Of a stretch of 64,000 nt of DNA, positions 21,256-54,817 are shown piece by piece. Each line of letters starts with the position of its first letter. Positions within the stretch are counted from its first letter, which is position 1. The notes below the pieces were generated by a model, which searched no databases, was not told the DNA's origin, and saw only the letters and a program-made list of their open reading frames with translations. The translations under genes were made by a program, and so were the position numbers. The DNA lies in the NCBI GenBank assembly GCA_902593675.1, contig CACJJI010000001.1, positions 256,957-320,956 of the forward strand, given 5' to 3'. This DNA is from an uncultured SAR86 cluster bacterium. Lineage in GTDB: Bacteria; Pseudomonadota; Gammaproteobacteria; Magnimaribacterales; D2472.

Positions 21256-21482
21256 GATCTAATGCCTCCAAGAACTTCTTTAATAATTTTATGATGAATT
21301 TCGTTTTTAACAGCAGCAGGCGATAAATCATTAGAATCTAAAGCATGCTCTTTAGTTGATGAAAAGAAAATTCTTAACACATTCACGGAGATAATTAGTA
21401 ACACTAGGAAAGTGAAGACAACTGTCATTCCGCTGTAAAGGAGATTCATTCCCTCTTGAATTAAGATATCCTGCTCTGCCAT
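21252..21482 (-). CDS. oadG: Oxaloacetate decarboxylase gamma subunit
   Basis: 76-aa protein with a single N-terminal TM helix (GMTVVFTFLVLLIIS). It is the first gene of the oad operon and overlaps oadA by 4 nt. Confidence 0.7.
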   Translation of the reverse strand: MAEQDILIQEGMNLLYSGMTVVFTFLVLLIISVNVLRIFFSSTKEHALDSNDLSPAAVKNEIHHKIIKEVLGGIRS

Positions 21483-21553
21483 ATTTATTATATAAATCTA
21501 AAATTTTTGAATTGACTTTAGTGATTTTACACCATTGTAAGTACAATATTGAA

Positions 21554-35660: not shown

Positions 35661-35698
35661 ATTGGCATTATAACTCCAACGCTCTTGTATTTAAATTT

Positions 35699-36628: not shown

Positions 36629-36631
36629 TTT

Positions 36632-37882
36632 TTATACTCCAAAAACAATTCTTAATAAAACATAAAATAAGACTGTAAATGCAGCTCCAGCAGGTATTGT
36701 CACAAGCCAAGAAGCAATGATTCTTCTGATAGATGAAAAATCAAGATGCTCTGCTCCTTTGGCTAGACCAACACCTATTACCCCCCCAACCAATGTGTGA
36801 GTTGTTGAGATGGGAAACCCTAAATAGGATGCAGCTACAACTGTTGAAGCTGTAGCCATTTCTGCTGAGAATCCAAGGCTGGGTGTAAGAGCGGTAATTT
36901 TTCTGCCAACAGTTGTAATAACTCTTGATCCAAGAGTAGCTAAACCAAAAACTATACCAATAGCACCAACAAATAAAACCCAAGGGCTGATGGCTGCCTT
37001 TGAGCCAATTGCACCAGTATCAACAACGCTTACAATTGCAGCTAATGGACCTATTGCATTAGCAACATCATTAGAACCATGAGCAAATGCCATTGCACTA
37101 GCTGAAACAACCATAAGCAATCCAAATGCAAATTCGATACCCCCATCTCGCATGATCTGTTGTTTATTTCTTCTTAAGAAAAATGCTGTTGCCAGCCCAA
37201 CTATTGAGCTGAATATTGCAATAAATAAATAGACTTCATTATCTGTGAACTCAACTCCAACATGCTTTAAGCCCTTCCTTGCAGTAACCAGGGAAATGAC
37301 TACAGCAACAAGAAAGCTATAGAAAGGGATGTACCTTATCGCAGCTTCACCAGGATTAGATCTGTCTAAAATAAGTTTTTTAGCTGATATATATAGACCA
37401 AATGCTAAAGTGCCAGAAAATAGCGGAGAAGTAACCCAGCTCATAGCAATATTACCAACTTTTCCCCATGAAACTGCATCAACCCCTTTGGTAATTAGAA
37501 CAAAACCAACAATAGATCCAACAATTGTATGAGTAGTTGAAACAGGCCAGCCTCTTAAACTTGCAACATACAGCCAAGTTCCGCCAGCAAGAAGTGCCGA
37601 GAGCATACCAATAACAAAGATATTAGTTTCATCAACATATAACTCAGGATCTACAATCCCTTTTCTGATTGTCGATGTTACTTCACCACCAGCAAGAAAA
37701 GCGCCTAGAAATTCAAAAATTGCTGCAATAATAATTGCTTGTTTGATAGTGATGGCTCTACTACCTACTGAGGTTCCCATCGAATTAGCAACATCGTTTG
37801 CTCCAATGCCAAACGCCATGAAAAAGCCAATGAAACCAGCTATAAGTAAAATTGTGTAGGGTTCTAAAAATAAAGTTTCCAT
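36632..37882 (-). CDS. pitA: Inorganic phosphate transporter, PiT/PHO4 family
   Basis: Duplicated GANDVAN motifs (GIGANDVANSMGT and HGSNDVANAIGP). 416 aa, polytopic. Confidence 0.9.
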   Translation of the reverse strand: METLFLEPYTILLIAGFIGFFMAFGIGANDVANSMGTSVGSRAITIKQAIIIAAIFEFLGAFLAGGEVTSTIRKGIVDPELYVDETNIFVIGMLSALLAGGTWLYVASLRGWPVSTTHTIVGSIVGFVLITKGVDAVSWGKVGNIAMSWVTSPLFSGTLAFGLYISAKKLILDRSNPGEAAIRYIPFYSFLVAVVISLVTARKGLKHVGVEFTDNEVYLFIAIFSSIVGLATAFFLRRNKQQIMRDGGIEFAFGLLMVVSASAMAFAHGSNDVANAIGPLAAIVSVVDTGAIGSKAAISPWVLFVGAIGIVFGLATLGSRVITTVGRKITALTPSLGFSAEMATASTVVAASYLGFPISTTHTLVGGVIGVGLAKGAEHLDFSSIRRIIASWLVTIPAGAAFTVLFYVLLRIVFGV

Positions 37883-38200: not shown

Positions 38201-38233
38201 TGTGACACATTAATGTCACACAAATGACACAAT
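38201..38233 (-). promoter_or_regulatory. Putative Pho box: three TG(A/T)CACA repeats at exact 11-bp spacing
   Basis: Cores lie at 38203-38209, 38214-38220 and 38225-38231. On the minus strand they read GTGTCAT / GTGACAT / GTGTCAC, against the PhoB half-site CTGTCAY. A TAGAAT -10 hexamer (38192-38187) lies 8 nt downstream on the minus strand, and there is no -35, as in Pho promoters. Confidence 0.5.
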
Positions 38234-39500: not shown

Positions 39501-40337
39501 ATGCTCATTTCGTTTGATCAAAAGGAATATCAAAAACTCAACGATAAATCCTATCAACTTGAAAAAAGAAGATTGCAAATTGAACTGCTTAAACTACAAG
39601 AAGATGTCATTAAAAACAAACGAAGAATTTGCATTGTTTTAGAAGGTAGAGACACTGCGGGAAAAAGCTCTGCCTACAAATTTTTTACTCAATACTTAAT
39701 TCCAAAAAACTTTAAGTATGTGAATCTTGGCATCCCAACTAAATGGGAATCCTCACATTGGTTTCAACGCTGGAAAAAAGTAATTCCTAAAAAAGGCGAA
39801 ATTGCCTTTTTAGATAGATCTTGGTACACACGAGCTTTAACAGAGCCAGTTATGGGCTATTGTAGCGAGAAGCAATATAGAGATTTTATGAATCGAGTAA
39901 TCCCATGGGAGCAAAACCTTATTGATGATGGTGTTGAGATTATTAAATTTTATTTTTCACTATCACAGGATCAACAGAAAAGACGAATGAAGGCTCGCAA
40001 GCATTCTGAACTAAAGTATTGGAAGCTCTCCCCCAATGATGAACGCATCGTTACTAAATGGGATGCTTTTACACTATATAAGGAACAAATGTTTGAGAAG
40101 ACTTCTCCTGATTTCTCTCCATGGATTGCAATCAACGCAAATAATAAAATGATCGCGCGCTTAACCGCATTAAGATTCTTGCTGAACCAAACAGATTACG
40201 AGGAGAAAAAACTTCTTAAACCTCTGACTTGGTCTAAAAATATTAATAACTATAAAGTCTTGTTAGAAGGAGTTGAGTTCAATAATTTGGACTATGAGCA
40301 ATACAAGGTTTTAAGTAAATACATGGATGATGAGTAA
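39501..40337 (+). CDS. ppk2: Polyphosphate kinase 2 (single-domain PPK2)
   Basis: Walker A EGRDTAGKSS, a DRSWYTRA lid motif, and a KLSPNDE block. Confidence 0.85.
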   Translation: MLISFDQKEYQKLNDKSYQLEKRRLQIELLKLQEDVIKNKRRICIVLEGRDTAGKSSAYKFFTQYLIPKNFKYVNLGIPTKWESSHWFQRWKKVIPKKGEIAFLDRSWYTRALTEPVMGYCSEKQYRDFMNRVIPWEQNLIDDGVEIIKFYFSLSQDQQKRRMKARKHSELKYWKLSPNDERIVTKWDAFTLYKEQMFEKTSPDFSPWIAINANNKMIARLTALRFLLNQTDYEEKKLLKPLTWSKNINNYKVLLEGVEFNNLDYEQYKVLSKYMDDE

Positions 40338-41192
40338 ATGAAAATTGCATCCATTGACATTGGAACCAATGCTATTAAATCTAAGATATTTAAAACAACA
40401 CCTGCATCAATTGAATTTATTCAAGGAATTAGATCGCCCATAAGACTTGGAAGTGATGTTTTTAATGAAGGAAGTCTCAGCACAGCTAAATTAGATCAGG
40501 TCATTGAAACCATTCGAGAATATGAGAAAGTATTTAAAGAAAATTCCATCAGTCATTATAAGATAGTCGCAACATCAGCTTTCAGGGATACCTCCAACTC
40601 TGAAAATGCTAGACGTTACATAGAAACGGCGATTAATCATCCGCTAAATGTAATATCTGGATTAGAAGAAGCAAAATTAATTAGATTTCATCCCAAAAGT
40701 AATACAGGCAAAAATAAGATTTTTGTAGATTTGGGCGGTGGAAGCACTGAATTTTTTATTCGTAATGAAAAAGATACGATCATTCGATCTTTTCAACTTG
40801 GAGCTGTGCGTAATATGCTTAAAAGAGATGAAAAAGAAGAATGGCAACGCCTAGAAAAATGGCTTCAATCAATCAAGCCAAAGAAAAAATTAATTGGTAT
40901 TGGGGGCAATATTAGATCATTTCTCAATTCCCAGGGACAAAAAGAAATGCCGCTGAATGAATTTATTAAAAAATCTGAAAGGCTGTCGAAGCTCGATACC
41001 AAGGAAAAAATAAAGAAATATAAATTTTCTCCAGATAGAGCGGATGTTATCGATCATGCATTACACATTTTTAAATTTATTGCAGAACAATTAGAGATTC
41101 AAACAATCACATCAACTAAATGGGGGATTTCAGATTCAATAGCTATAAAATTATTCCACGAACTATATTCAAGCAAAGTTACTATTTCATAA
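40338..41192 (+). CDS. Ppx/GppA-family phosphatase, short form (actin-like N-terminal domains only)
   Basis: ASIDIGTNAIK phosphate-1 motif, ATSAFRD, and DLGGGSTEF. At 284 aa it lacks the C-terminal HD-like domains of E. coli Ppx. Its ATG directly follows the ppk2 stop. Confidence 0.8.
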   Translation: MKIASIDIGTNAIKSKIFKTTPASIEFIQGIRSPIRLGSDVFNEGSLSTAKLDQVIETIREYEKVFKENSISHYKIVATSAFRDTSNSENARRYIETAINHPLNVISGLEEAKLIRFHPKSNTGKNKIFVDLGGGSTEFFIRNEKDTIIRSFQLGAVRNMLKRDEKEEWQRLEKWLQSIKPKKKLIGIGGNIRSFLNSQGQKEMPLNEFIKKSERLSKLDTKEKIKKYKFSPDRADVIDHALHIFKFIAEQLEIQTITSTKWGISDSIAIKLFHELYSSKVTIS

Positions 41193-41660
41193 GTTTCTAT
41201 AAACAGAAATAATTTCATATCGATTTTCTGAAAATTCAATATCAATTGAGTCAATTATTATGCTTGGATGACTGGCAATTGTTTCTAAAAATTGAGCGCT
41301 ATTTTCAATACTCTGCTGAGTGAAAGAGAAGAACTGCTTTTCATTGTCTTCAAAAGTTTTAAGATTAAAAATTTCACTTAATTTCGCTTGAGAGTTTATA
41401 AAATCCTCTACTGAAGATGCCTGTTTAATAATTTGTTGAGTATTTTGGTAAATTAAAGCGGCATTAGCTTTTTCAAACACATAATAAAAATCATCTTTTG
41501 ACCTCTCCAGAGCTTTGCTTTGATAAGCAATAGAACTATATGCATTATTAAAATACGCGCCCAATAACACCAATATAAAAATTGCAAGAACTATCAGAAG
41601 CAAGAATCTCTCTCTTCGCTCACGAGCATTCCAAAAATCTGCTAGCTTGCTAAGTTTCAT
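41187..41660 (-). CDS. gspM: Type II secretion system protein M
   Basis: N-terminus FWNARERRERFLLL followed by one TM helix, and the last position in the gsp operon. The start is taken at the ATG at 41660, overlapping gspL by 11 nt. Confidence 0.65.
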   Translation of the reverse strand: MKLSKLADFWNARERRERFLLLIVLAIFILVLLGAYFNNAYSSIAYQSKALERSKDDFYYVFEKANAALIYQNTQQIIKQASSVEDFINSQAKLSEIFNLKTFEDNEKQFFSFTQQSIENSAQFLETIASHPSIIIDSIDIEFSENRYEIISVYRNL

Positions 41661-42819
41661 ATTGCACCAGTAAGTTACCAAAGAAACCCTCATCTTTTTC
41701 TATCAGATCAGACTCTATAAAATTGAGCTCTTCTGATTTCAATATTTGCTTTAATAGATTTAATTTCAAGGGCGGCAGCCCTTCCAAGCGAATATTAATT
41801 TCTTGTTCTTTGAGATTAATAGCAATCCTTTGAATTGAATCATCCTTGAATGCATCCAAGTAATTCAACACACCAAAATCTTGCTTTGAAATATTATTTT
41901 GCTGAGGAATATTTCTTGTTAAATCATCAATCTGAGCACGCGCATTAACCAATCTTTTAAAATTAGGGTTGAGTTGTTCAAAGATTTTTACAGTGCTTTG
42001 TTTGTAGGTATTCACGGATGAGTTTAAATTGTAGGAAATAACTAATGGTGCTATCAAAAATATGAGAGCTGAGATATTTAGAGCCCAGAATTCAAAAAAA
42101 TTAAATTTTAATTTCTGTTTAATATAATGAAATGATATTTTTCTTTTAAAGAAATTTACATTATTAAATTTAAGAGTGTTTATAAAACTAATATGAAAGT
42201 CAGAAAATTGTATTTTTTTAAAATTTAAATCTTGAAATTTATTTAAAAGTACAGGCTCTGACTCACCTAAAGCTTGAAGCGCTTTTAAATCTATGCCGGC
42301 AGATACCAAAATTTGTAGATAATCTTCTAGCGAATCATTGGAGCCGCTAAATCCAGTGAAATCTTTAAATGAACAAATGAAGTTCTGCTCACCAACATAA
42401 ATAGAATTGATTCCCTCAGGTAATAAAAAATGTTCGGGATAAAAATAAACATCTCCCTCATACTCATTAAAAGGCTCGGCAATAGAATTATAGGTGTTGT
42501 AATTAATCCAAGCTGCTAGATTTAAACTAGGCTGAAAAAAGAATTTTAGATCTGAGACATTACTGATAAGACCATCCTCAGACTCACTAAAAATGTTTGC
42601 TTTTAAAATATCATTCTTTAATCCAGTCTCGTTGCGAGTGACCTTGAATCCGAATAGCGCAGAAGGGATCATGATATAAAGATTATTGCCAGGTAATAGT
42701 GCTTCATTAGCCTCTATTACACTGTATTTCTTAACTTGCTTTGCACCACTCTCGTCATATGTAAAAAGCCTAACAGTAGATAGGCATAGATCATCGAATT
42801 TAATAAAGTAATTGATCAT
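41650..42819 (-). CDS. gspL: Type II secretion system protein L
   Basis: 389 aa with a cytoplasmic domain, a single TM helix (ISALIFLIAPLVISY) and a periplasmic domain. Positioned between gspK and gspM. Confidence 0.65.
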   Translation of the reverse strand: MINYFIKFDDLCLSTVRLFTYDESGAKQVKKYSVIEANEALLPGNNLYIMIPSALFGFKVTRNETGLKNDILKANIFSESEDGLISNVSDLKFFFQPSLNLAAWINYNTYNSIAEPFNEYEGDVYFYPEHFLLPEGINSIYVGEQNFICSFKDFTGFSGSNDSLEDYLQILVSAGIDLKALQALGESEPVLLNKFQDLNFKKIQFSDFHISFINTLKFNNVNFFKRKISFHYIKQKLKFNFFEFWALNISALIFLIAPLVISYNLNSSVNTYKQSTVKIFEQLNPNFKRLVNARAQIDDLTRNIPQQNNISKQDFGVLNYLDAFKDDSIQRIAINLKEQEINIRLEGLPPLKLNLLKQILKSEELNFIESDLIEKDEGFFGNLLVQYET

Positions 42820-42824
42820 ATGTG

Positions 42825-43781
42825 TTAGAAACTAAAATCTCTATTCAAAACTTTTGCTGAATTAGAATTCTCTAATATAACAAGACTATCCAGCTGATTG
42901 GAAAAAGTTTGATTATATATCTTAGATGAAATAAGTAAGGTTTTTGAGTTAATGCTGAGGACCTGTGATGGCCAAGAGACTGATTGGGTTATTTTCTTAG
43001 CAAATTCATTGGCAGAATCATAGCCATTTTCTGGAGCATCTAATATCTGGCTTTCAATAAATTCTAAATTTTCTTCATCAAAAAATGATGCTATCAAATT
43101 TTTATGAGTATTATTTAATGTGTTGACATTAATTAATTGATTTGAAATTCCTGGTAAGACGCATAAATTATTAGATATTTTGTTGAAGTCAATTTGATCT
43201 AAAACGGGGAAATTTTTTATCTCTGAAAGATTGGACAATAATCTTTTAGGAGTATATTGATTGATTGGAGATAAGGGTCCAATGTAAAAATAGTTTTCTG
43301 CACCGAAATTTAATGGCTGATTATCAGGATCAACCCAGTCAATTAATTGATCAATAAATGATTCTATCTTTGGGGCATCAAAACCTTTTAATCTTAATAA
43401 ACGCTCTAACCATTCTTTATTGTCTTTTTTAATTTGAAGACCATCACCAGTTTTTATAAAAATACTATTTAGGTTAAAACAATTAGAGGCATCGGAAACG
43501 TCCACTTGAATGGTGGCTAATTCATTTGAAAAGAAATAGCTCTGATTAAGAACTGGATCTTTGTTCGTTAGCTTTTGATTTGAAGAGACAATTTCTTTTT
43601 GAATAGACTGAATAGCTTCTTTCTCTGAGCTCAACAAGAGTTGCAAACTGTGGTTCTTAAAATCTATATATGAATCTCGTTGAATGGAAAGAAAAAAATT
43701 TTTACTGATCTGAGTGCTGATAATAGCCATGACCATCACAATTAATAATGTTGAAATCAGTACTACGCCTGGCTTATTCAT
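42825..43781 (-). CDS. gspK: Type II secretion minor pseudopilin K
   Basis: N-terminus GVVLISTLLIVMVMAII without the conserved Glu5, size 318 aa, and operon position. Confidence 0.75.
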   Translation of the reverse strand: MNKPGVVLISTLLIVMVMAIISTQISKNFFLSIQRDSYIDFKNHSLQLLLSSEKEAIQSIQKEIVSSNQKLTNKDPVLNQSYFFSNELATIQVDVSDASNCFNLNSIFIKTGDGLQIKKDNKEWLERLLRLKGFDAPKIESFIDQLIDWVDPDNQPLNFGAENYFYIGPLSPINQYTPKRLLSNLSEIKNFPVLDQIDFNKISNNLCVLPGISNQLINVNTLNNTHKNLIASFFDEENLEFIESQILDAPENGYDSANEFAKKITQSVSWPSQVLSINSKTLLISSKIYNQTFSNQLDSLVILENSNSAKVLNRDFSF

Positions 43782-44385
43782 AAACAGTATTGATATTGGG
43801 GTTTACTATCCATACAAATGATTCATCTTGATTGTTGGTTATAGAGACTTTTATTAAGTTAGGAATCTGTCTTTGCGTGATTGGCCCTTGAGGCCATGCA
43901 TAAAACCATCGAGTTTTGTCAGCAAATTCTAATTGAAGATTATCTATATCTTCAAACAACTTAGTTTCCATATATTCCAAGGGATTTGCTGGCGAGGCAG
44001 CATAATATTGCCTTCTCAATAATGATTGATTTTCTAAAACATATTCAATCCTTACTAAGTCTTTGGACGATATATCTTGAGTAATTGCTTTGGTTATAAA
44101 GGAAAAACTATCAGTATTTGCACCACCGATAAAAGTAGCCTTTTCTATATCACCTCTAAAATTTATTACAGGAATGTTTACTGCATTTATTAAATCGTTA
44201 GTTAAAGTACTGGTCAGTAAATTAAATTCATAAATATCTTGAGATTTTCCTGACACTAAATCCCTTGATTGAATTGAAGAGTTTAAAAAGTTGGATGTGA
44301 TGACTGCTATGAGGCTCAAAATGACAATAGATATTAATACTTCAATTAGAGTAAAGCCTTTTTTGTGGTCCTTATTTTTTTTCAA
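43774..44385 (-). CDS. gspJ: Type II secretion minor pseudopilin J
   Basis: Prepilin motif KGFTLIEVLISIVIL. 203 aa. Operon position. Confidence 0.75.
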   Translation of the reverse strand: MKKNKDHKKGFTLIEVLISIVILSLIAVITSNFLNSSIQSRDLVSGKSQDIYEFNLLTSTLTNDLINAVNIPVINFRGDIEKATFIGGANTDSFSFITKAITQDISSKDLVRIEYVLENQSLLRRQYYAASPANPLEYMETKLFEDIDNLQLEFADKTRWFYAWPQGPITQRQIPNLIKVSITNNQDESFVWIVNPNINTVYE

Positions 44386-44728
44386 TGAATACTCTCAATT
44401 CATATAATGTTGCTTGCTGATTTTTGCCAACTAAAATTCTAATTTCATTCATCCGATCAGAACTTTGATTGATTGTTTCTGACCAAAAAAAAGTTTTTCC
44501 ACCAAAATCTATTTGACCATCTCTTTGATTAGTTCCAATCATTGGCTCTAGTGTCTGGACCAGCGCCAATCTATTGTTTGCAATTTGTCTTGCATAAGCT
44601 CTATCTTCTAGGTCAAAAGTAGATAATGTAGTGGATGAAATAAATTGAAAGATAGAAGTAACCGCCAAGCCAAGAATTAGCAGAGCTACACCAACCTCTA
44701 GAAGACTAAAACCCTTTTGAAGAAACAT
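44372..44728 (-). CDS. gspI: Type II secretion minor pseudopilin I
   Basis: Prepilin motif KGFSLLEVGVALLIL. 118 aa. Operon position. Confidence 0.75.
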   Translation of the reverse strand: MFLQKGFSLLEVGVALLILGLAVTSIFQFISSTTLSTFDLEDRAYARQIANNRLALVQTLEPMIGTNQRDGQIDFGGKTFFWSETINQSSDRMNEIRILVGKNQQATLYELRVFIEKK

Positions 44729-45215
44729 AATTATTTTTAGAATCTATGACTTTACCAGAGGCATCTATGGTGATCACTCTTCCTGAGTTATCTTCATTAA
44801 AATGGATTTCACCGCCTGAAGATTGGCCAGATGGATAAAAAATTAAAAAAGGTAATTTAGTTTCATCTGAAAATAAGAGTGTCTGACCGCGAGCATTTTT
44901 AAAAAGAGTTTGGTTGCTTATATTTGGGTAGTACGAAGAATCAAAATCCTGTGAATGCCACTCATTTTTTTTTAAAATATAAATAGTTTGAGTATTCTCT
45001 CCAATGAACCATGCAAGAGTTTTTTTAGTTAAAGCGCTTTCTTCAGAGAGGTATTTAAGAAATTCTTTATAGGGCTCGACTTGATTGGATTGGTATCTAT
45101 CAACAAAAGATGTATTGGTAATAATGACAGTGGAAATAAGGCCCATTAAAATTAACACAACTAAAAGCTCTAAAAGAGTGAAGCCTTGAGAGAAATTTAG
45201 TTTTCTGAAATCCAA
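44706..45215 (-). CDS. gspH: Type II secretion minor pseudopilin H
   Basis: Prepilin motif QGFTLLELLVVLILMG. 169 aa. Operon position. Confidence 0.7.
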   Translation of the reverse strand: MDFRKLNFSQGFTLLELLVVLILMGLISTVIITNTSFVDRYQSNQVEPYKEFLKYLSEESALTKKTLAWFIGENTQTIYILKKNEWHSQDFDSSYYPNISNQTLFKNARGQTLLFSDETKLPFLIFYPSGQSSGGEIHFNEDNSGRVITIDASGKVIDSKNNYVSSKGF

Positions 45216-45631
45216 TTACCTATATCGGCATCGTCTCCAAAGCCGCCCTCTAAACCATCTGCACCAAGACTATAAAGATCATATTTTTTAGTTTTTTGAC
45301 CTGGTTGAATATATAAGTATTCTCGACCCCATGGATCTAGAGGAGTTGTATTAATATACCCATTCTCAGGATACAAGTAAGGACGTTTAAGCTCATTGTG
45401 GGGGGTTATTAATGCTTGAAGCCCCTGATCTGTTGAGGGGTATGTGAGCTCGTTAAATTTATACAACTCAAGGGCTTTCTCAATTTGAGAGAGGTCTGCG
45501 CGCATCTTTTCAAGATTAGCTCTTTGCAAAAAGGGTGAGACATTGACAGCAACAATAGTGGCTAAAATGCCTAAGATGACTATCACGGCCATAAGCTCAA
45601 TTAACGTAAAACCAGGTTTGTTTTTTTTCAT
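45197..45631 (-). CDS. gspG: Type II secretion major pseudopilin G
   Basis: PGFTLIELMAVIVILGILA, plus a conserved GspG C-terminal region (DPWGREYLY..GADG). Confidence 0.9.
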   Translation of the reverse strand: MKKNKPGFTLIELMAVIVILGILATIVAVNVSPFLQRANLEKMRADLSQIEKALELYKFNELTYPSTDQGLQALITPHNELKRPYLYPENGYINTTPLDPWGREYLYIQPGQKTKKYDLYSLGADGLEGGFGDDADIGNWISEN

Positions 45632-45633
45632 AT

Positions 45634-46830
45634 TTATCCTAAAGCCATGCTATTCATCTGCATGATGGGTAATAAAATAGCTAAAACAATTAATAAAATT
45701 ATGCCGCCACCAAAAATTATAACCAAAGGTTCAAGTAAAGATAAAACAGTTGATCTTTTACTTTCTATTTCGCCTTTCATATATTGTGCAACTTTTTCAA
45801 ACATGAATGTTAAATTTCCTGACTTATAGCCACTTGAAAGAAGTTGTAAAAATAAGGAAGGGAAAATACTGGCCTCTCTGAGTGATTGAATGAAGTCTTT
45901 GCCCTCTACCAACTGAACCCTGGCATCTTCAACAGATTTAGCGATGTATTTGTTGCCTATGACAACGCTAGCTTGCTGCATAGAAACATCCAAGTTTAAG
46001 CCTGACTTCATCATCAGATGCATCACTCTTGAAAAACGTTCAACCTCTGCATTTAATATAAATGCACCAATAAGGGGGATTTTTAAAAATCTTCTATGAA
46101 TTATGATTGCTTTTTGATCATTTTGAATTAAATGTTTGTATAAAAAAAAGCCGCCTAAAATTAGCAAAAAAAATGATAATAGAATTAATACAGAATAATT
46201 TGATACACCCATTAAGACTGCCGTCAAAGCTGGTAGTTGCGCGCCTGCACGAACAAATTGATCAACAACTTGAGGCATGACAAATGTTAAGAGAGCAAAA
46301 ACCACTCCCACTGAAAAGACCATTAAAATCATAGGATATGCTAATGCTGAAATGACTTGCTGTCTTACCAATGCAGATTCTTCAAGGTAATCTGCAAGAT
46401 TGCTAAAAGCAATATGCAAGTTCCCTGCAGCATCTCCAGCTGCAACAAGCGATCTATAGGTTTCATTGAAGATGGATGGATGTGAGGACATTGCTTCAGC
46501 AATTCTAGAGCCTTGAAGAATCTCATCTCTTACTGCATGCAATGCTGCAGAAAGAGACTTATCTTCAACTTCAAGAGCAATAGATTTTAAAGTTTCATCA
46601 ATGGATATACTAGAATCAAGTAAAGTTGCAATTTGTCTAGTAGCAAACAGTAATTGTTTTTGGGATACCCTAACCTTTAAAAATTGATTTCTATTAGTTT
46701 TACCTAAAGATAATGGTGTTAAGTTTGATGCTTTGATTTGCTGTCTCGCAGCACGTTCTGATTCAGAGTTTAAAATCCCATTAACTTTTTTTCCAGATTC
46801 ATTGATTGCAATGTATTTATAAGTTGGCAT
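45634..46830 (-). CDS. gspF: Type II secretion inner-membrane platform protein F
   Basis: 398 aa with a duplicated GspF/PilC domain and 3 TM segments. Confidence 0.9.
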   Translation of the reverse strand: MPTYKYIAINESGKKVNGILNSESERAARQQIKASNLTPLSLGKTNRNQFLKVRVSQKQLLFATRQIATLLDSSISIDETLKSIALEVEDKSLSAALHAVRDEILQGSRIAEAMSSHPSIFNETYRSLVAAGDAAGNLHIAFSNLADYLEESALVRQQVISALAYPMILMVFSVGVVFALLTFVMPQVVDQFVRAGAQLPALTAVLMGVSNYSVLILLSFFLLILGGFFLYKHLIQNDQKAIIIHRRFLKIPLIGAFILNAEVERFSRVMHLMMKSGLNLDVSMQQASVVIGNKYIAKSVEDARVQLVEGKDFIQSLREASIFPSLFLQLLSSGYKSGNLTFMFEKVAQYMKGEIESKRSTVLSLLEPLVIIFGGGIILLIVLAILLPIMQMNSMALG

Positions 46831-48313
46831 CTTGATGGTTTTGAACTCTTAAAAGTTCTTCATATGAAGTTAAACCGTCACGTAAAAGTTGTGACGAGGA
46901 TAAGTCTAAGGATAGGTTTTCTTTAAAAGCTGATTCAGCTAACTTTGCCTCAGAGGCTTCGTCATGTATCAAGGCTTTTAATTCATCAGAGATATTAATG
47001 CACTCGGCAAGAGCAATCCTGCCTTTGAAACCTGTGTGATTGCAGTTTGCACATCCAACAGCCTGATAGATATTTTCGTTTTTCTCAAGTTGAAACTCTT
47101 TTTGGATTGTGGCTGACGGCTTCACGGGGGTTTTGCAATCTTCACATAGTCTTCGAACAAGTCTTTGGGCGATAACCACTCGTATGCTTGATGATAAAAG
47201 ATATGACTCAATACCCATGTCCCTTAGTCTAGCAATGGCTCCAATAGCACTATTGGTATGAATGGTAGAGAGAACTAAATGCCCTGTTAAACTTGCCTGA
47301 ATAGCAATTTTAGCAGTTTCTATATCTCTAATTTCTCCTACCATGACTATATCGGGATCTTGACGTAGGATTGATCTTAGACCTGAAGCAAAATCGTATC
47401 CAGCTTTATTGTTAACTTGAGTTTGACCAATTCCTGGCAGAGTGTATTCAATAGGATCTTCAACGGTAAGGATATTTTGTGAAGTATCGCTTATGTGTCT
47501 TAGGCCGGAATACAATGTTGTTGTTTTCCCAGAGCCGGTTGGACCGGTAACTAAGATAATGCCTTCTGAAAGTTGCAAAGCATTTTTATAGTTTCTTAAG
47601 ATTGAATCTGGCAAACCCAAATCACCAATATTGATTTGCGCTGCCTGTTTATCCAATAACCTTAAAACAACTCTTTCGCCATAGGATGATGGCAAAGTAG
47701 AAACTCGAACATCAATTTTTTTTGCCCCTAGTGATAGGGAGACCCTCCCATCTTGAGGCTGTCTTCTTTCGGCTATATCCAATCGAGCAATAATTTTTAA
47801 GCGCGAAATAATAGGAGCTGAAAGCCTAGAATCGTGAGTCAAGACTTGTCGTAAAATACCGTCAACCCTATACCTAATAATAAAATTTTCTTCATAAGGT
47901 TCAAAATGAATATCTGATGCTCTCTCTTTGATGGCTTGACTTATTACTCCATTAATCAGTTTAATAATTGGAGCATCATTTGCTCCGCTTAATAAATCCT
48001 CAGTTGGAGCTAATGTATTTGCAAATGATTGCAAATCAAAGTCCTCTGAAAGGCTTGCATCACCCAATCCATTATCATCGTTAGCTGAATAATATTCAGT
48101 TAATAATTGATCAAATTCAGTTGGAGTACATGTTTGAGATTTAAAATGATTAGCAAGAAAACGATAGAGCTCTTGAAATAAATCTTTTGAAAGAGGCTGC
48201 TCTGATATAACTTGAGCTCGTTGATCTTTTTCAAATGCAATCACTCTTTGAGTTTTTGCGAATTCATATGGTAGCAAGGGACTCTTTTGGGCAACAACCT
48301 GATTCTTCGTCAT
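46817..48313 (-). CDS. gspE: Type II secretion ATPase E
   Basis: Walker A GPTGSGKTTT, Asp box, Walker B (DPDIVMVGEIRD), His box, and a tetracysteine CEDC..CANC motif. Confidence 0.95.
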   Translation of the reverse strand: MTKNQVVAQKSPLLPYEFAKTQRVIAFEKDQRAQVISEQPLSKDLFQELYRFLANHFKSQTCTPTEFDQLLTEYYSANDDNGLGDASLSEDFDLQSFANTLAPTEDLLSGANDAPIIKLINGVISQAIKERASDIHFEPYEENFIIRYRVDGILRQVLTHDSRLSAPIISRLKIIARLDIAERRQPQDGRVSLSLGAKKIDVRVSTLPSSYGERVVLRLLDKQAAQINIGDLGLPDSILRNYKNALQLSEGIILVTGPTGSGKTTTLYSGLRHISDTSQNILTVEDPIEYTLPGIGQTQVNNKAGYDFASGLRSILRQDPDIVMVGEIRDIETAKIAIQASLTGHLVLSTIHTNSAIGAIARLRDMGIESYLLSSSIRVVIAQRLVRRLCEDCKTPVKPSATIQKEFQLEKNENIYQAVGCANCNHTGFKGRIALAECINISDELKALIHDEASEAKLAESAFKENLSLDLSSSQLLRDGLTSYEELLRVQNHQDANL

Positions 48314-48316
48314 AAA

Positions 48317-50158
48317 CTATTGAGTAAGGTCTAAGATATTTTTGTTAGATGATCCTATGATTTTTTCTGCATTGATATAATTGTACTTCTCTCCCGAAAG
48401 AGAAGAAACATCAGCTGAGTCCATTAAGATTGTGGGTCTTAAAAATACCATAAGATTTCTCTGCACTCTAGATTCAGCAGATGAACTAAAGAGTCTCCCA
48501 AAAACCGGAATAGAGCCAAGCAGTGGAACTTTAGAGACGCTTTCTTGAAGGTCGTCTTCATTTAAGCCTCCTAAAACTATCATCTGATTGTTATCAACCA
48601 AGACAGTTGTTTCAATGCTTCTTTTGTTTGTAATAAGATCTGCTGTTCCTGTTAAAGGGCCAACCACACCAGAGACCTCTTGTTTTATCTCCAAAATTAC
48701 AGAATTACCTTCATTAATTTGTGGCGTAATAGAAAGTTTTATACCAACCTCTTGACGTGAAGTTGTGCGAAAAGGATTAGCATTATTTGAGCCAAGGCTT
48801 TCACCAGTTGTAATTGGGATCTCTTGGCCTATTACTAAATTTGCAGGCTCATTATCCATCGCAATGACTGTATGTGTTGATAAGACATCTGAATTCTGAT
48901 CATCCGCAACTGCACTTATAATTCCAGCAAAGCTATCTCCGCCGCTTAAATCTCCAAACCCTGAAACCAATCCAGAGGACTGTAATAAAGAAGAAGATGC
49001 AACATTGCTTAATGTGGCATTTTCACCATCTTCGATCAACGATCCTGCTAATGCAACCAAATCAGGATTCGATCCATTTTGAAATCTAGTAATACCAACT
49101 GGAACATTTCCATCCTGAGCTCCGGCAAAAATTGTTTCAACGCCCAAACTCTTTGCGGCTGTTTCAGATAGCTCAACAATGATTGCTTCTACAAGCACCT
49201 GCGCTCTTCTAATATCTAGCTTTGATACCAAATTTCTAATAACCTCAAGATTTGTTTCTTCTGAAGAGACAATCAACGAATTGGTTTCACGGTGGTGAGT
49301 AACAATTGGTTTTTCATTATCTTCGCCAGCAAACCTAGATGAGACAGCATTAATAATGGCGGCAACTTCTTCTGCTTTTGCATACTTTAGATACAAAACA
49401 GCAATTGACCCACCAGTTAAAGCATCTTTATCCAACGTCTTCAATGTTTCGGTAATATTATTTGTAACTACCTGATCTGCTGAGAGTATTACTGAATTTG
49501 ATGGTGTGAATGGAACGGCTATAAAGTTATTTATAGTTGGATTATTCTGAGCTTTTAATCGATCAAGAATCCTTACCGCCTCAACTGACGAAAGATTATT
49601 TAACTTAATAATCTTGATCGCTGCGCTATCATTTTGATCAATTTTTTTAAGCAACTGGCCAATCCTTTCAATGTTTGATTTTTTATCAACCAAAAGTATA
49701 GAGTTAATCGATGGGATACTTGACAGATGAGATTGCCTTCCAGTGATAGGTTTGATTTGACTGAGAATTTCTCCTGCAGCTCTATTTTTTAGAGTAAATA
49801 TTTTTGTTTCTATGGAAGACTGGCTCAGTGATTCATTTGAATCTCTGGTTGCTTCATTTTCAGGGACAATTCTAACCACTCCACCGTCTGAAAGAGCTGC
49901 AAAACCATGCACCTGAATAGTTCTTAAATATACATCCCAAACTTGTTCAGCAGAAAGAATTGAATCAGAAAAAATTGATATTCTACCTTTAACCCTTGGA
50001 TCAAGTATCAAAGTTTTTTTAGAAAATTTAGAAATATCTTGGGTGACTTTTGCTATATCTACATCTTGGTAATTAAGCAAGAAAGTTTCTTGTGCGTGAG
50101 ATTGGATGGAAAAAAGAAAAAAAGGAATGAAAATTATGGATTTAATTTTTTGAATCAC
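48317..50158 (-). CDS. gspD: Type II secretion secretin D
   Basis: Signal peptide, N0-N3 domains, and a C-terminal secretin domain (VPLLGSIPVFGRLF..LMVFLRPTIL). Confidence 0.9.
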   Translation of the reverse strand: MIQKIKSIIFIPFFLFSIQSHAQETFLLNYQDVDIAKVTQDISKFSKKTLILDPRVKGRISIFSDSILSAEQVWDVYLRTIQVHGFAALSDGGVVRIVPENEATRDSNESLSQSSIETKIFTLKNRAAGEILSQIKPITGRQSHLSSIPSINSILLVDKKSNIERIGQLLKKIDQNDSAAIKIIKLNNLSSVEAVRILDRLKAQNNPTINNFIAVPFTPSNSVILSADQVVTNNITETLKTLDKDALTGGSIAVLYLKYAKAEEVAAIINAVSSRFAGEDNEKPIVTHHRETNSLIVSSEETNLEVIRNLVSKLDIRRAQVLVEAIIVELSETAAKSLGVETIFAGAQDGNVPVGITRFQNGSNPDLVALAGSLIEDGENATLSNVASSSLLQSSGLVSGFGDLSGGDSFAGIISAVADDQNSDVLSTHTVIAMDNEPANLVIGQEIPITTGESLGSNNANPFRTTSRQEVGIKLSITPQINEGNSVILEIKQEVSGVVGPLTGTADLITNKRSIETTVLVDNNQMIVLGGLNEDDLQESVSKVPLLGSIPVFGRLFSSSAESRVQRNLMVFLRPTILMDSADVSSLSGEKYNYINAEKIIGSSNKNILDLTQ

Positions 50159-50159
50159 T

Positions 50160-50564
50160 TTAATTATCTACTATTAAATTTGTACTTATTTGAAAAAGAT
50201 TTCCGTTATATTCAAATGTAGCATATGCACTATTTACAGTGGCTAATTTATATTTATTTTCCAATAATGCACCCTGTTGCACAACAAAGGTTTGATTATT
50301 TTTTTGAACGATTACTGAGGCTCTTGAAGGACCGGCTCTAAATCCAACAACCTTATAATCAAAATTTGATGAGGGGGTTGATTCAATTTGATTCACATCG
50401 ATGCTAGAGCTAAATTGAGAAGATCCTTGAATTGAGTTGAAATCTATATTAATTTCACTAGGTCGAGAAACAAAAGACAAGATTAATAGATATAGAACAT
50501 ATCCCGCTAGCAGAACCACGAGACCAATCAGGACTTTTTTAATCAAAATGTAATTAGTATTCAT
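50160..50564 (-). CDS. gspC: Type II secretion protein C (minimal: TM + HR domain, no PDZ)
   Basis: N-terminal TM helix, then a roughly 70-aa HR/PilP-like domain (YKVVGFRAG..ASVIVQKNNQTFVVQQG..). First gene of the gsp block, 1 nt before gspD. Confidence 0.6.
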   Translation of the reverse strand: MNTNYILIKKVLIGLVVLLAGYVLYLLILSFVSRPSEINIDFNSIQGSSQFSSSIDVNQIESTPSSNFDYKVVGFRAGPSRASVIVQKNNQTFVVQQGALLENKYKLATVNSAYATFEYNGNLFQISTNLIVDN

Positions 50565-50590
50565 AAGGTTAGATCAACTTTATAGTTTAT

Positions 50591-52348
50591 CTATGATAGC
50601 GGAAGAGTAAACCAGAACACAGATCCACCCTCTTTTCTTGTCTCAACACCAACTTCGCCCTGTAAATTATTTACAAGGTTTCGCACTATAGCTAATCCCA
50701 GGCCACTACCTTGCTTGGTATTAGCTCTTGCTTTTGCGGTTCGGTAGAATCTCTTGAAAACAAATTTTTGTTCTTCCTCTGGAACACCTTCACCAAAGTC
50801 TAGAACTGAGATGCGTAAAAAACCAGCCTGCTTTCTTGCTCTAATTTCAATAAGCGAGCTCTCAGGGCTATATTTAAAAGCATTATCTATTAAGTTATTT
50901 AAAACTCTTTCGATGGCTTTAGTGTCACTTTGAACCTCAATATCAGTTTGGCGATTAAAGACTAGGTCAATATTTTTTCTTTTTGCTTTGCTTTGGAATG
51001 ATGAAATAACTGTTTCAATTACTTCATTTATAATTATTGGCTCTATTACAAATTTTAAATCTCCATATTCAATTCGTGATAAATCTATTAGCGAGGTTAC
51101 CATCTCGCTTAGGCGGTCTGCATTATGCAAAATAGCTTTAGAAAATGTTTTAGCATCTTTCGAATTATCCAAGGCTCCATCTAATAATGTTTCTGAATTT
51201 GCCTTAATAACACTTACCGGGGTTCTAAGTTCATGTGATAAGTTGGAAACAAAATCCCTTCGCATTGAATCCATCTCCCTTAGTTGAGTTGTTTCATGCA
51301 CTACTAAGATTAATTCCTTTGTTGCCTTAGCTTTATTCATGTGCGCTAAGATCCATCTCGTATCATCACCATCTGTATCAAGCTCAAATTCACTATCATG
51401 TTGGCCTTTTTTTAAAGCCTTTTTATAAAGTTGTTTTAAGGGGGGTATATTCAAATCAAAAATTGATTTTTTTAAGATTTCATCTAAGCCAAGAATTTGC
51501 ATGATCTGATCGTTTCGAAAAGTAATAGTCCCATCTTCATCAAGAACCATAATCCCCTCCCCCAAACCATCTAGGACCAAGCCAAATTGGTCTCTTTGTT
51601 TCGCAATTAAGGAAATTTGCTCTTTTAAATTTAAAGATATAGTTGATATATTCCTAGCCATAGAACCAATTTCATCTGAGCGTTTGGTAGGCAAAGACTC
51701 TAAGTTTTTTTTCTTATAACTACCTGCAGAAATTTCAGCAGCAGCTTTTTCTAGCTCTACAAAACTAGCTCTAATATAATCTCCAGCAAGCACGCTTGCT
51801 AAAATTGCAACAATGAGACCAACAACTACTATAAGAGTGATCGAATTGCCCAAAGATGCTAAAACTTGATCTAAGCTCTCATAGGGAACTGATATTCTAA
51901 TTACCCTTTCTTGGTTATTAGTTTTATCTAAAAGTGCAAAATAAAACATTTCTTTCTTGACTGTTGAGCTAAATCTCTTGCTTGATCCATAGCCATTATT
52001 GAAGGCTGAAATGATTTCTGGTCTATCGCTGTGGTTATCAAGATCATTAATTCTGCTAGCTTCAATATCTGAGTCAACAATCACGTCACCATTTTTTAAG
52101 ATAATGGTTATCCTGGAATCAGAGGCAGAAGCATACTCATCGGCCTCAGATTTTAATGCAACCAAGTCACCAGAATCTATTAAGCCTGATATAGATTTTC
52201 TTAAAATTTTGGCTTGTCTTGAAAGCTCAGTTTCAATTTGGGCTTGAAGCTTAATAGATAAATCTCTTTCAGCAACAATAAAAGAAAGAGAAATGCCAAC
52301 AAATAGGCATGAGAGCGTAATAAAGAAAATTCGGGTTCGAATACCCAT
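50591..52348 (-). CDS. phoR: PhoR-like sensor histidine kinase with large periplasmic domain
   Basis: TM1 (residues about 7-27), a roughly 140-aa periplasmic segment, TM2, HAMP, PAS, HisKA (SNLSHELRTPV), and HATPase (N, G1 DFGEG, G2 GSGLGL boxes). It is paired with a PhoB-like regulator. Confidence 0.75.
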   Translation of the reverse strand: MGIRTRIFFITLSCLFVGISLSFIVAERDLSIKLQAQIETELSRQAKILRKSISGLIDSGDLVALKSEADEYASASDSRITIILKNGDVIVDSDIEASRINDLDNHSDRPEIISAFNNGYGSSKRFSSTVKKEMFYFALLDKTNNQERVIRISVPYESLDQVLASLGNSITLIVVVGLIVAILASVLAGDYIRASFVELEKAAAEISAGSYKKKNLESLPTKRSDEIGSMARNISTISLNLKEQISLIAKQRDQFGLVLDGLGEGIMVLDEDGTITFRNDQIMQILGLDEILKKSIFDLNIPPLKQLYKKALKKGQHDSEFELDTDGDDTRWILAHMNKAKATKELILVVHETTQLREMDSMRRDFVSNLSHELRTPVSVIKANSETLLDGALDNSKDAKTFSKAILHNADRLSEMVTSLIDLSRIEYGDLKFVIEPIIINEVIETVISSFQSKAKRKNIDLVFNRQTDIEVQSDTKAIERVLNNLIDNAFKYSPESSLIEIRARKQAGFLRISVLDFGEGVPEEEQKFVFKRFYRTAKARANTKQGSGLGLAIVRNLVNNLQGEVGVETRKEGGSVFWFTLPLS

Positions 52349-52353
52349 ACTAA

Positions 52354-53049
52354 TTAATCTGAGCTTCTAGAAAATCGATAACCTACACCGCGAATGGTTT
52401 GAATATGTTCGCCAACTAGACCAAGCTTCTCCCTTAAACGCTTGATGTGAGTATCAACGGTTCTTGTAGTAACATTGGAACTGTATCCCCAAACATCCTC
52501 CAGAAGTTGATCTCTTGTCTGAACTCTACCCTTTCTTTTGATTAAGTGTTTTAGCAATTTAAACTCTAGAGCGGTAAGAGAAATTCCTTCACCAGTTATA
52601 TAAGCTTGATGTTCTTCAAAATTGATTGTGAGTTCTCCAAATGAGTATTCAGCATCCTCAGTATTGTTTTCTGTTGAGGCGCCTCTTTTCAAAATAGCTT
52701 TAACTCTTAATATTAACTCTCTAACACTAAATGGCTTAGTAACGTAATCATCTGCACCTAATTCAAAACCAACAACACGATCAACCTCTTCGGTTTTTGC
52801 AGTTAAGATAATGACTGGGATATTTTTTGTTTTTGGTTCAGACTTGATATCTCTACAAAGAGTCAAACCAGAACCATCTGGCAACATGAGATCTAAAATT
52901 ATCACATCAATTTTATTTGAAGCTAAGGCTTTTTCACCCTCTTCTATTGACGCGGCTTGAATAACTTTAAAAGATTCTTTTGAAAGATTATAGTCAATCG
53001 TTTTGCGAATATCAGGCTCGTCTTCAATAACTAATACATTTGATGGCAT
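52354..53049 (-). CDS. phoB: PhoB-like OmpR-family response regulator
   Basis: Receiver domain (VIEDEP, DLMLPDGSG, LTAK..DRV.G.ELGADDYVTKPFS) closely collinear with E. coli PhoB. Winged helix TRTVDTHIKRLREKL..GVGYRF. Confidence 0.8.
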   Translation of the reverse strand: MPSNVLVIEDEPDIRKTIDYNLSKESFKVIQAASIEEGEKALASNKIDVIILDLMLPDGSGLTLCRDIKSEPKTKNIPVIILTAKTEEVDRVVGFELGADDYVTKPFSVRELILRVKAILKRGASTENNTEDAEYSFGELTINFEEHQAYITGEGISLTALEFKLLKHLIKRKGRVQTRDQLLEDVWGYSSNVTTRTVDTHIKRLREKLGLVGEHIQTIRGVGYRFSRSSD

Positions 53050-53113
53050 AAATATCTAAAAATTTTATATCCCTTTATACATTATATTGCTGTGAGATTT
53101 AATTCAATTAAGG

Positions 53114-54817
53114 TTAATTTTGCTCAATAGAAACAAAAATGTCGCGCAATTGTGTTTTAGAGAATTTACCTGAAGCAACTCTTGGTAGTTCTTCATGGCT
53201 TATTTGCATGAATGATGGAATTTTAAATGCAGCTAATTTATCTTGCAAAAAATCTCTTAAATCTTCTTCTGATAATTTCATTGAGGGTTTTAGGCATATT
53301 GCAACACACAAAGTTTCACCGAGGCGCTCTTCGGGGATACCGAACACAGCTGCTTCCTGAACTGATGGATGTGCATAGATTGCTGTCTCAACCTCAATGC
53401 AGGAAATATTTTCTCCACCTCTGATTACCATATCTTTTACCCTGTCTACGATATACACAAAGCCATCATCTATGTATCCCAGATCTCCAGATTTAAACCA
53501 GCCATCATCGTTAAAGACTTCATCGGTGGCCTCTTGATTCATCCAGTAACCCACCATGTTGGCTGGGCTTTTGATAACAATCTCTCCGACGGCTTTTGGC
53601 TCTTCAATAAAATTCCAATTCTCATCAATGATTGCTACATCGGTTACCGGAGGAATAGCTCTGCCGCAGCTGCCTGGATGCAACAAATAATCTTTGCCCA
53701 AGTTTAGAGTCCCTGCCGCATTAGTTTCGGTCAGTCCATATCCTATTGAAGGCTCTGCGTCATTAAACCCATCTTTTAATTTCTTTACATGCTCAGGTGG
53801 TCTTGGCGCACCGCCACCACTTAATTCTTTAAAACTGGAAAGGTCATACTTATCTCTATCAGGATGCGTTAAAAGATCCCAAGTTTGAGTTGGAACGCCT
53901 GTTATGGCTCCTATCTTTTCATCTTGAATTAACTGCAGTGCTGCACCTGGATCCCACTTAGACATCATAACCATTTTTCTTCCTGCAATGATGCTCATCA
54001 GAAAACCTGAATGGCTTCCTGTCACATGAAATAATGGCACACAATGCAAAATTGCTGCCTGTTGTTTAGGAGTCTCATCTACAGACTTGGATTCTGAATT
54101 ATTATCTGTATCTTCAACCTCTCTTTTTAGAGTTGTGACCAAAGCCCAACTAAACAATGTTGAAAGTATGTTTCTGTGAGTTGATAGCACTCCTTTAGGA
54201 AAGCCAGTTGAACCAGAGGTATAAAAGATGGTCGCATTGTCATGGGTATCTAAACTGGGCTCATTAAAGATTTCTGATTGACTGCCTATAAACTCATTAA
54301 AATCCTCATAGTCATTTGAGTCATTGAGTGGCCTGACAACAATCTTCCTGAGTTCTGTAAATTTTTCCAAACCCTTTAATCTTTTCTCATCACCAATTAA
54401 TACAGTGGCTCCAGAGTTTTCTAGCCCATAAGTAATCTCATCAGGAACCCACCATGAATTGAGCAAAACACAAACAGCACCCATCGAGGTCACCGCCATA
54501 AATGAAATAATGTACTCAGGATTATTAGCCATACAAATGGCCACTCTATCGCCCTTTTTAACGCCAGCATTTTTGAGCGCATTGGCTGTTTGAGCTGCCT
54601 TCTTATGTATATCTTGAAAGCTGTATCTTTCATCATTAAAAACAATAAACTCCCATTCAGGAAATAACAGCCCAAACTCAAAAAAACTTGCTAAAGTTTT
54701 AGGAGTGTTTGTAAATTCACGGTAAGTAATTCCTGAGGAATGAGTAACTTCTTTAAACGCATAAATTTGATCTTCTGCTGTTAGATTAGCTAAAACTTCG
54801 TTATATTTATCAGACAT
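53114..54817 (-). CDS. Acyl-CoA synthetase (AMP-forming, ANL superfamily)
   Basis: IFYTSGSTGFPKGV, YGLTET, SGDLGY, and a terminal PRVASGKF. Confidence 0.9.
   Translation of the reverse strand: MSDKYNEVLANLTAEDQIYAFKEVTHSSGITYREFTNTPKTLASFFEFGLLFPEWEFIVFNDERYSFQDIHKKAAQTANALKNAGVKKGDRVAICMANNPEYIISFMAVTSMGAVCVLLNSWWVPDEITYGLENSGATVLIGDEKRLKGLEKFTELRKIVVRPLNDSNDYEDFNEFIGSQSEIFNEPSLDTHDNATIFYTSGSTGFPKGVLSTHRNILSTLFSWALVTTLKREVEDTDNNSESKSVDETPKQQAAILHCVPLFHVTGSHSGFLMSIIAGRKMVMMSKWDPGAALQLIQDEKIGAITGVPTQTWDLLTHPDRDKYDLSSFKELSGGGAPRPPEHVKKLKDGFNDAEPSIGYGLTETNAAGTLNLGKDYLLHPGSCGRAIPPVTDVAIIDENWNFIEEPKAVGEIVIKSPANMVGYWMNQEATDEVFNDDGWFKSGDLGYIDDGFVYIVDRVKDMVIRGGENISCIEVETAIYAHPSVQEAAVFGIPEERLGETLCVAICLKPSMKLSEEDLRDFLQDKLAAFKIPSFMQISHEELPRVASGKFSKTQLRDIFVSIEQN

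Follow-up and report, generated by a model that had tools for sequence, protein, structure and literature searches.

A complete type II secretion operon next to a PhoBR-like regulator pair in the phosphate island of SAR86 bacteria

A 64-kb stretch of contig CACJJI010000001.1, hereafter the window, comes from a SAR86 cluster genome (1.5 Mb, 81% complete) and carries a complete type II secretion system (T2SS), gspC-M, which begins 26 nt behind the genes of a PhoB-like response regulator and a PhoR-like histidine kinase and lies within a group of phosphate-related genes, the phosphate island. In surface ocean waters SAR86 ranks among the most abundant heterotrophs. An earlier description has it without pili or similar envelope machines (PMC3358033), and no paper linking type II secretion with SAR86 was found in the literature searched.

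Taken as a whole, the following explanation is the best that we can offer, and we hold it with moderate confidence; promoter use, the phosphate response and the cargo are the parts of it that we infer from sequence comparison. The Pho-box promoters most likely under the control of the regulator pair are those of a PHO4-porin-phytase operon and a glycerophosphodiesterase gene. In the window lineage gspC abuts phoR, and the DNA that lies between the two in relatives is absent. Transcription of gsp probably has two sources, namely read-through from phoB, whose promoter is probably constitutive, and a sigma-70-type promoter of its own, with a -10 element TAAACT in the gap and a -35 element inside the end of phoR. 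By analogy with the ElpS/T2SS module of Caulobacter and the Hxc system of Pseudomonas, the machine may export or release envelope proteins that aid phosphorus scavenging. Three findings speak for the link with phosphate: the Pho-box arrays directed toward gspC in genera g4 and g9, the linkage of gsp with the island across families f1-f4, and the E. coli-like Pho boxes before the PHO4-porin-phytase operon of the window.

The comparisons were made in two sets, one of 151 genomes of the SAR86 order (21 genera in families f1-f4) and one of 20 close-relative SAR86 loci, which were recovered with the kinase as query. Gene identities were taken from Pfam and NCBIfam/TIGR profile scans with curated equivalog cut-offs, from PDB sequence search and from hhalign.

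The gspC-M operon and its regulator genes

The original prediction had described a 13-gene minus-strand array of response regulator, histidine kinase and gspC-M, and our open reading frame (ORF) map gave identical coordinates for it. Gaps are 5 nt between the regulator gene (52354..53049) and the kinase gene (50591..52348), 26 nt between the kinase gene and gspC (50565..50590), and at most 5 nt, or overlaps, inside gsp. One correction is needed at the upstream end, where the co-directional array begins one gene before phoB, with an AMP-dependent (acyl-CoA-type) ligase (53114..54817, minus strand; Pfam AMP-binding and AMP-binding_C) at a 64-nt gap; this ligase is syntenic with phoBR in families f1 and f4. 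At the other end, gspM and the convergent ppx share 6 nt that include both stop codons (41187-41192), so that there is no terminator between the two opposing transcription units.

The gsp genes, all on the minus strand, are a complete type II secretion system. The secretin gene gspD (48317..50158) encodes N0, Secretin_N and Secretin domains, with 430.5 bits to TIGR02517 (cut-off 351) and the Pfam type_II_gspD_N0 domain present. The ATPase gene gspE (46817..48313) matches type_II_gspE best (TIGR02533), with 611 bits slightly under the equivalog cut-off of 630, and its Pfam T2SSE and GSPE_N1E domains are clear. Likewise the platform protein gene gspF (45634..46830) has the GspF model as best match (TIGR02120, 354 bits, slightly under the cut-off) and two clear T2SSF domains. 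The pseudopilin genes (43774..45631) follow: gspG (45197-45631; TIGR01710 152 bits, cut-off 89), gspH (44706-45215), gspI (44372-44728), which exceeds its equivalog cut-off and matches T2SSI, with a weaker prepilin-type N-terminal match, and gspJ (43774-44385). GspH, GspJ and GspK (42825-43781) were matched by Pfam or NCBIfam models (T2SSJ for GspJ, T2SSK_1st for GspK), and N_methyl motifs were found in GspG, GspH and GspJ. GspM (41187-41693) is just over the gathering score of Pfam T2SSM (28.2, threshold 27.8), and GspL (41650-42819) has a weak match only, to GspL_C (E=0.0016).

GspE, GspF, GspG and GspD also match the PilB, PilC, pilin and PilQ models, with lower scores, which is what a type IV pilus or competence-type fibre in place of a secretion system would have in its favour. 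We rejected this reading as highly improbable on the model scores and on the presence of GspC, GspK, GspL and GspM: the T2SS-specific models score best, with GspD, GspG and GspI above their cut-offs, GspD has the N0 domain, and GspC is represented by its HR domain. Besides, within the operon, to which this check was confined, there are no PilT-, PilM-, PilN- or PilO-type genes, all of its genes being assigned to Gsp components.

The first gene of the operon (50160..50564) encodes a protein of 134 aa with a transmembrane helix, a Ser/Asn-rich linker and an HR domain, and matched no model in the libraries. Its last 63 residues align (hhalign 89.8%, E=1.8e-6) with the HR domain of canonical SAR86 GspC proteins, themselves matched by Pfam T2SSC and PDZ, and its top match in the PDB sequence search is the GspC HR domain 3OSS_C, a weak one (E=0.6). 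On account of this alignment and this match we regard the protein as a GspC without PDZ, in agreement with the earlier description of a GspC lacking PDZ and coiled coil: a PDZ domain is absent, and the length of the protein leaves no space for a coiled coil.

The window system also has no gspN. The earlier reading had further noted gspO as not in the window and had taken the machine to be minimal. It turned out that gspO is outside by 3 nt only: a gene for a 248-aa protein with A24_N_bact and Peptidase_A24 domains lies at G000:C1:320959-321705, equivalent to positions 64003-64749 of an extended window and about 11 kb from phoB. So the peptidase gene is not missing from the genome, and the label "minimal" does not hold in this respect. 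The gene was present in 4 of 5 gsp-positive genomes vs 1 of 10 gsp-negative ones, and in the three other gsp-positive genomes having it, it is found about 14-16 kb from gspD. This A24 peptidase is the GspO of the system.

The regulator carries Response_reg and Trans_reg_C domains and is the only full OmpR-family response regulator in the genome. Its best NCBIfam match is PhoB (TIGR02154, 247 bits, cut-off 296). The kinase is best matched by PnpS, WalK and PhoR, all below cut-offs (PnpS 296 vs 400; PhoR TIGR02966 228 vs 334), and consists of a transmembrane segment, a periplasmic domain (about 140 aa, weakly matching sCache_like), a second transmembrane segment, HAMP, PAS, HisKA and HATPase. 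The call of the pair as phoB and phoR was borne out, as it is the best candidate by its sole OmpR-type regulator, its top family matches and its place in the phosphate island; the island and the Pho boxes surrounding the pair support this assignment well, and we consider it very probable. The window genome has very few two-component genes, and this is its only classical two-component pair. Other receiver and HisKA matches are found in one 3-kb stretch with several receivers and one HisKA-type kinase (G000:C1:94290-97070), and one further receiver-domain match is at C3 238228-238605.

Compared with the PhoB/PhoR-PstSCAB-PhoU circuit of E. coli, the likeness is in the OmpR-family regulator with a PAS-HisKA-HATPase kinase and in direct-repeat Pho boxes at 11-bp phase before phosphate-acquisition genes. 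The SAR86 pair differs by the periplasmic domain of its kinase and by scores below the equivalog cut-offs. Besides, PhoU (PF01895) was not found in the window genome as assembled, and PstS (TIGR00975; other PstS families were not searched) was found in 0 of the 151 genomes, which agrees with the report of just two ABC importers in SAR86 by Dupont et al. (PMC3358033). Together with the periplasmic kinase domain, these absences suggest that phosphate sensing may bypass Pst-PhoU, and they raise the question of how SAR86 cells sense phosphate.

Pho boxes, promoters and the phoR-gspC junction

On the far side of gsp two plus-strand genes converge with the operon, ppk2 (39501-40337; Pfam PPK2) and a short ppx/gppA (40338-41192; Pfam Ppx-GppA), and in relatives without gsp both face phoR directly. 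Beyond them, one minus-strand operon (34614-37882) comprises a PHO4/PitA-type phosphate transporter (36632-37882; Pfam PHO4), a porin (35699-36628; Pfam Porin_4) and a beta-propeller phytase (34614-35660; Pfam Phytase). A Pho-box array (38202..38230, minus strand) stands upstream of a small ORF and this operon. It reads GTGTCAT-N4-GTGACAT-N4-GTGTCAC, three heptamers at 11-bp phase, which agree with the E. coli half-site CTGTCAY at 6/7, 5/7 and 6/7 positions (consensus as quoted in PMC2225411). It is the top-scoring and only such site genome-wide under a scoring consensus that was derived from the site itself. The array is conserved before PHO4 in other f1 and f3 lineages as well, where its spacers vary and where some loci have no TetR neighbour. 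The array was considered as an operator of the divergent TetR gene as well, and this was ruled out because the same array precedes PHO4 in f3 loci that have no nearby TetR match. A second, E. coli-like Pho box, CTGTCAT-N4-CTGTAAA (21422-21439), is located 90 nt upstream of a plus-strand glycerophosphodiester phosphodiesterase gene (21512-22294), which probably belongs to the Pho regulon as well.

In the window, the Pho-box scan at 12/14 or more matches gave none near gspC or phoB, and a scan of 50100-51100 at 13/14 or 17/21 gave none either; the phoB upstream regions of other f1 lineages likewise have no Pho box. The region upstream of phoB (53050..53113, minus strand) holds the conserved TGTATAAAG, a candidate extended -10 element with TG at 53080-53081 and TATAAA at 53074-53079. 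As GTATAAA it is conserved before phoB across lineages of genus g1 and family f1, and the phoB promoter looks, and probably is, constitutive.

The 26-nt gap between phoR and gspC, ATAAACTATAAAGTTGATCTAACCTT, was said to lack a terminator, and indeed no hairpin or T-tract occurs in or near it. It contains a -10-like TAAACT (50584-50589), overlapped by TATAAA (50579-50584), and a possible -35 element TTTACT (50606-50611) lies inside the phoR end with a 16-nt spacer to TAAACT. Every locus examined in f1, the family of the window, has a hexamer TA[C/A]A[C/A]T 14-20 nt before the gspC ATG, and its T1, A2, A4 and T6 are invariant whether the upstream gene is phoR, a TonB receptor or the ligase. Such a pattern is what would be expected for a sigma-70 -10 element.

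Among relatives, the adjacency of phoBR and gsp has a mixed record. It is direct in genera g1, g4, g7 and g9 of f1 and in f4, but confined to such lineages, and many lineages have 0.1-6 kb of other DNA between phoR and gspC. The tight junction looks like the derived state, since relatives hold either a lipoprotein and a TonB receptor gene or a Pho box and a 28-codon ORF between phoR and gspC.

A 12-bp hairpin, AAAATGAGCTAC-loop-GTAGCTCATTTT, stands before gspC in the 16 loci with a TonB receptor gene upstream and in g9; it is restricted to these loci and absent in the window. Most of the predicted free energies fall between -13 and -19 kcal/mol, the weakest being -8.6. The alignment has 96% paired cells and compensatory changes in 6 of the 12 pairs, and 0 of 500 shuffles did as well; the hairpin looks like a terminator. 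Where phoR abuts gspC, the 3' arm has decayed and the TA[C/A]A[C/A]T hexamer is kept. The hairpin loci are L035, L038, L039, L041, L044, L067-72, L075-76, L078, L081 and L083-89. The hairpin is flanked by an A-tract and a T-tract and ends 4-12 nt before the gspC ATG. A -10-like TACACT sits in its 5' arm and loop, so that terminator and promoter element appear superimposed.

Other arrangements occur in g4, g9 and f4. The phoR-gspC spacer of g4 and g9 measures 230-330 nt and has arrays of the form TGTCAC-N5-TGTCAC(-N5-TGTTAC), oriented toward gspC and standing immediately before a conserved 28-codon ORF. This ORF (MVKSIWKKFHIFMKAGRLNKVVKISGLK and variants) is found at L037:12665-12748 (-) and L041:5767-5850 (+) and in L064-66, L077, L080 and L082, with an evident Shine-Dalgarno sequence in both loci inspected (L037 and L041); a homologue was not found in the window genome. 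No Pho box is present at gspC in genus g1 or g7, and none was noted in the short spacers of f4. In f4 (L052-L054 and L090-L097) the phoR-gspC gap is 9-16 nt, which fits read-through in this family. At least four f4 loci (L052 and L095-L097) share a conserved (G)TAAAAT whose end lies about 7-9 nt ahead of the gspC ATG, and a gspC message made from it might be leaderless or near-leaderless.

Taken to its full extent, the original prediction would make phoB-phoR-gspC-M one phosphate-autoregulated unit and the T2SS a starvation-only machine exporting the phytase, which it had named as a candidate cargo. The absence of a terminator from the 26-nt gap, the short f4 gaps and the loss of the terminator hairpin exactly where phoR abuts gspC would all suit such a unit, and so would the phytase itself, which is indeed a lipoprotein (lipobox LFVGC) encoded about 6 kb away in a Pho-box operon. 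As control logic, the single uninterrupted operon is weakened by the -10-like hexamer that gspC has of its own and by the lack of Pho boxes at phoB and gspC, phoB having just the conserved TATAAA-type -10; the intervening DNA of many lineages also speaks against it. The proposal of the phytase as cargo fared no better. All 8 T2SS-less relatives with a long enough flank keep the PHO4-porin-phytase operon, so the phytase does not need the T2SS, and action in the periplasm would suit an enzyme paired with a porin and a transporter. The cargo in the window genome is thus probably something other than the phytase, and the reading as a whole appears improbable.

Distribution in the SAR86 order and relation to known systems

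GspD was found in 99 of the 151 genomes, in 18 of 21 genera and in all four families. Two types of system can be distinguished: one with the short GspC, in family f1, genus g15 of f2 and f4, and one with a canonical GspC of 272-284 aa with PDZ, in the rest of f2 and in f3. Loci of the second type (L042, L043 and L046-L051) have a GspD about 40% identical to that of the window and the same phosphate neighbourhood. In all four families gsp lies within 0-13 kb of phoBR, ppk2/ppx, PHO4, the porin and/or the phytase, with shuffled gene order.

The DNA between phoR and gspC in genera g2, g5 and g6 of f1 encodes a lipoprotein of 958-987 aa and a TonB-dependent receptor. This pair stands directly before gspC also in g15 of f2; in f3, g17 has a half-size lipoprotein homologue with a TonB receptor directly before gspC, and in g11 and g16 the pair is about 11 kb from gspD. 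In L039, for example, the lipoprotein gene (15052-17928, minus strand) encodes 958 aa and the receptor gene is at 12384-15023 (minus strand), with homologues in L035, L038, L044, L059, L060 and L051. Orthologues of the lipoprotein (at least 60% identity) occur in 33 of the 151 genomes, 30 of which have GspD; in the three GspD-less genomes, two of the lipoprotein genes are truncated by a contig end and one begins about 1 kb from it. Pho-box-like repeats before the lipoprotein gene were seen by eye only. The lipoprotein, which has no Pfam, NCBIfam or PDB sequence match, is made of two repeats of about 450 aa each. A single-sequence AlphaFold model was unusable (predicted local distance difference test, pLDDT, 35.5), and an alignment-based model of one repeat reached pLDDT 84, with a best structure match of E=2.8e-3 and TM 0.2-0.3. 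By these weak matches the repeats may be parallel beta-helix-like. No homologue of the pair was found in the window genome, and there is no Pho-regulated cargo gene beside gsp there.

A similar layout is known from Caulobacter crescentus, where elpS (CC0170), the TonB receptor gene CC0171 and gspC-N form a locus linked with phosphate starvation (Le Blastier et al. 2010, PMC2996285). Both cases have a complete T2SS, tied to the phosphate-starvation response in Caulobacter and probably so in SAR86, lipoprotein and TonB-receptor genes upstream of gsp (in g2, g5 and g6 of f1, g15 of f2, and f3 on the SAR86 side), and gspO encoded apart from the operon; the SAR86 lipoprotein and ElpS were compared by gene layout. 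The window genome differs in that it lacks the lipoprotein/receptor pair and has phoBR directly before gspC, a GspC without PDZ and no gspN. The Hxc system of P. aeruginosa and P. fluorescens, a second-type T2SS whose cargoes are LapA and the DING protein Psp (PMC2225411), is likewise placed beside Pho-regulated phosphate-scavenging genes, and in both cases the Pho boxes conform to the E. coli consensus CTGTCATA(AT)A(TA)CTGT(CA)A(CT). As for differences, gsp is the only T2SS of the SAR86 cell; the regulator genes of Pseudomonas are elsewhere, the cargo genes are known, and hxcR of P. fluorescens is not induced by phosphate limitation. Judged by these likenesses, the SAR86 system would belong with the known phosphate-linked T2SSs, the Caulobacter ElpS module and Pseudomonas Hxc, and its novelty would be the occurrence in a major ocean clade. 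The theme of a phosphate-linked T2SS would in this way be extended from Caulobacter and Pseudomonas to streamlined ocean plankton.

The same data can be read as historical adjacency, with the T2SS a general-purpose constitutive exporter, e.g. of lipid, protein and polysaccharide hydrolases, that happens to sit in a conserved stretch of a streamlined genome. The -10-like element at gspC, the gspC upstream regions free of Pho boxes in the window, g1 and g7, with none noted in the f4 spacers, the P. fluorescens finding that T2SS machine genes are not phosphate-induced (PMC2225411), and the richness of SAR86 in hydrolases and TonB receptors (PMC3358033) are all compatible with it. It has more difficulty with the linkage to phosphate genes, which persists in four families despite several rearrangements, with the arrays in the g4/g9 spacer and the by-eye repeats before the lipoprotein gene, and with the lipoprotein-receptor pair beside gsp, which mirrors the Caulobacter phosphate-starvation module (PMC2996285). 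We regard it as rather unlikely.

The phosphate-linked explanation that we prefer also has several points against it. The regulator and the kinase are both under the PhoB/PhoR equivalog cut-offs. The -10 and -35 candidates before gspC are weak (4/6 each) and were not listed by a consensus promoter scan. With no Pho box at phoB or gspC, sequence gives no support for a phosphate response of the window T2SS. Since the genomes of SAR86 are small and of high synteny, the conserved linkage may in part reflect plain inheritance. Of the two analogues, P. fluorescens offers the lack of hxcR induction mentioned above (PMC2225411), and the T2SS genes of Caulobacter are reported to be expressed in rich as well as in poor media (PMC2996285).

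Presence and loss of the gsp block among close relatives

The 20 close-relative loci share the gene order S8 peptidase, ligase, response regulator, histidine kinase, [gspC-M], ppx, ppk2, SnoaL and TetR. Eight of them have the 9.4-kb gsp block and 11 lack it, and the last locus ends within the kinase gene. In some gsp-less loci the kinase is 96-97% identical to that of the window, and none of the 10 gsp-less genomes checked has GspD anywhere. In four gsp-less loci (L009-L012) a stretch of about 30 nt beside ppx is homologous to the gspM 3' end and is likely a deletion scar; no such gspM remnants were found in the other gsp-less loci, namely those of the 88%-identity clade, L025 and L027.

These losses bear on the suggestion that the T2SS is dedicated to phosphate starvation. 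The part of it that stands is the linkage to phosphate genes, kept across the order; dedication itself is weakened by the dispensability of the cluster and by its own -10-like element. About two thirds of the sampled genomes carry the complete T2SS, always in the phosphate island, and it has been repeatedly lost among close relatives. This frequency, together with the island location and the repeated loss, leads us to hypothesise that SAR86 strains differ in phosphorus acquisition. A bolder version would have the deletion of intervening DNA fuse the only T2SS operon onto the only classical two-component operon, so that sensor and exporter come from one message, with the kinase sensing phosphorus periplasmically without PstSCAB-PhoU and a strain-variable "phosphate-starvation organelle" splitting SAR86 into phosphorus-acquisition ecotypes. 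We find this version doubtful.

Parsimony on the tree of the flanks gives at least three changes of gsp state, and these could include a regain of gsp. The trees of gspD-F and of phoBR share their deep branching, which favours vertical descent with repeated loss, with 5-7 losses if there was no regain. Deep horizontal acquisition of the cluster was considered as well and is not supported, the two trees being concordant at depth. The gsp cluster is an old but dispensable member of the island, and shallow recombination of the cluster is suggested by the tree comparison.

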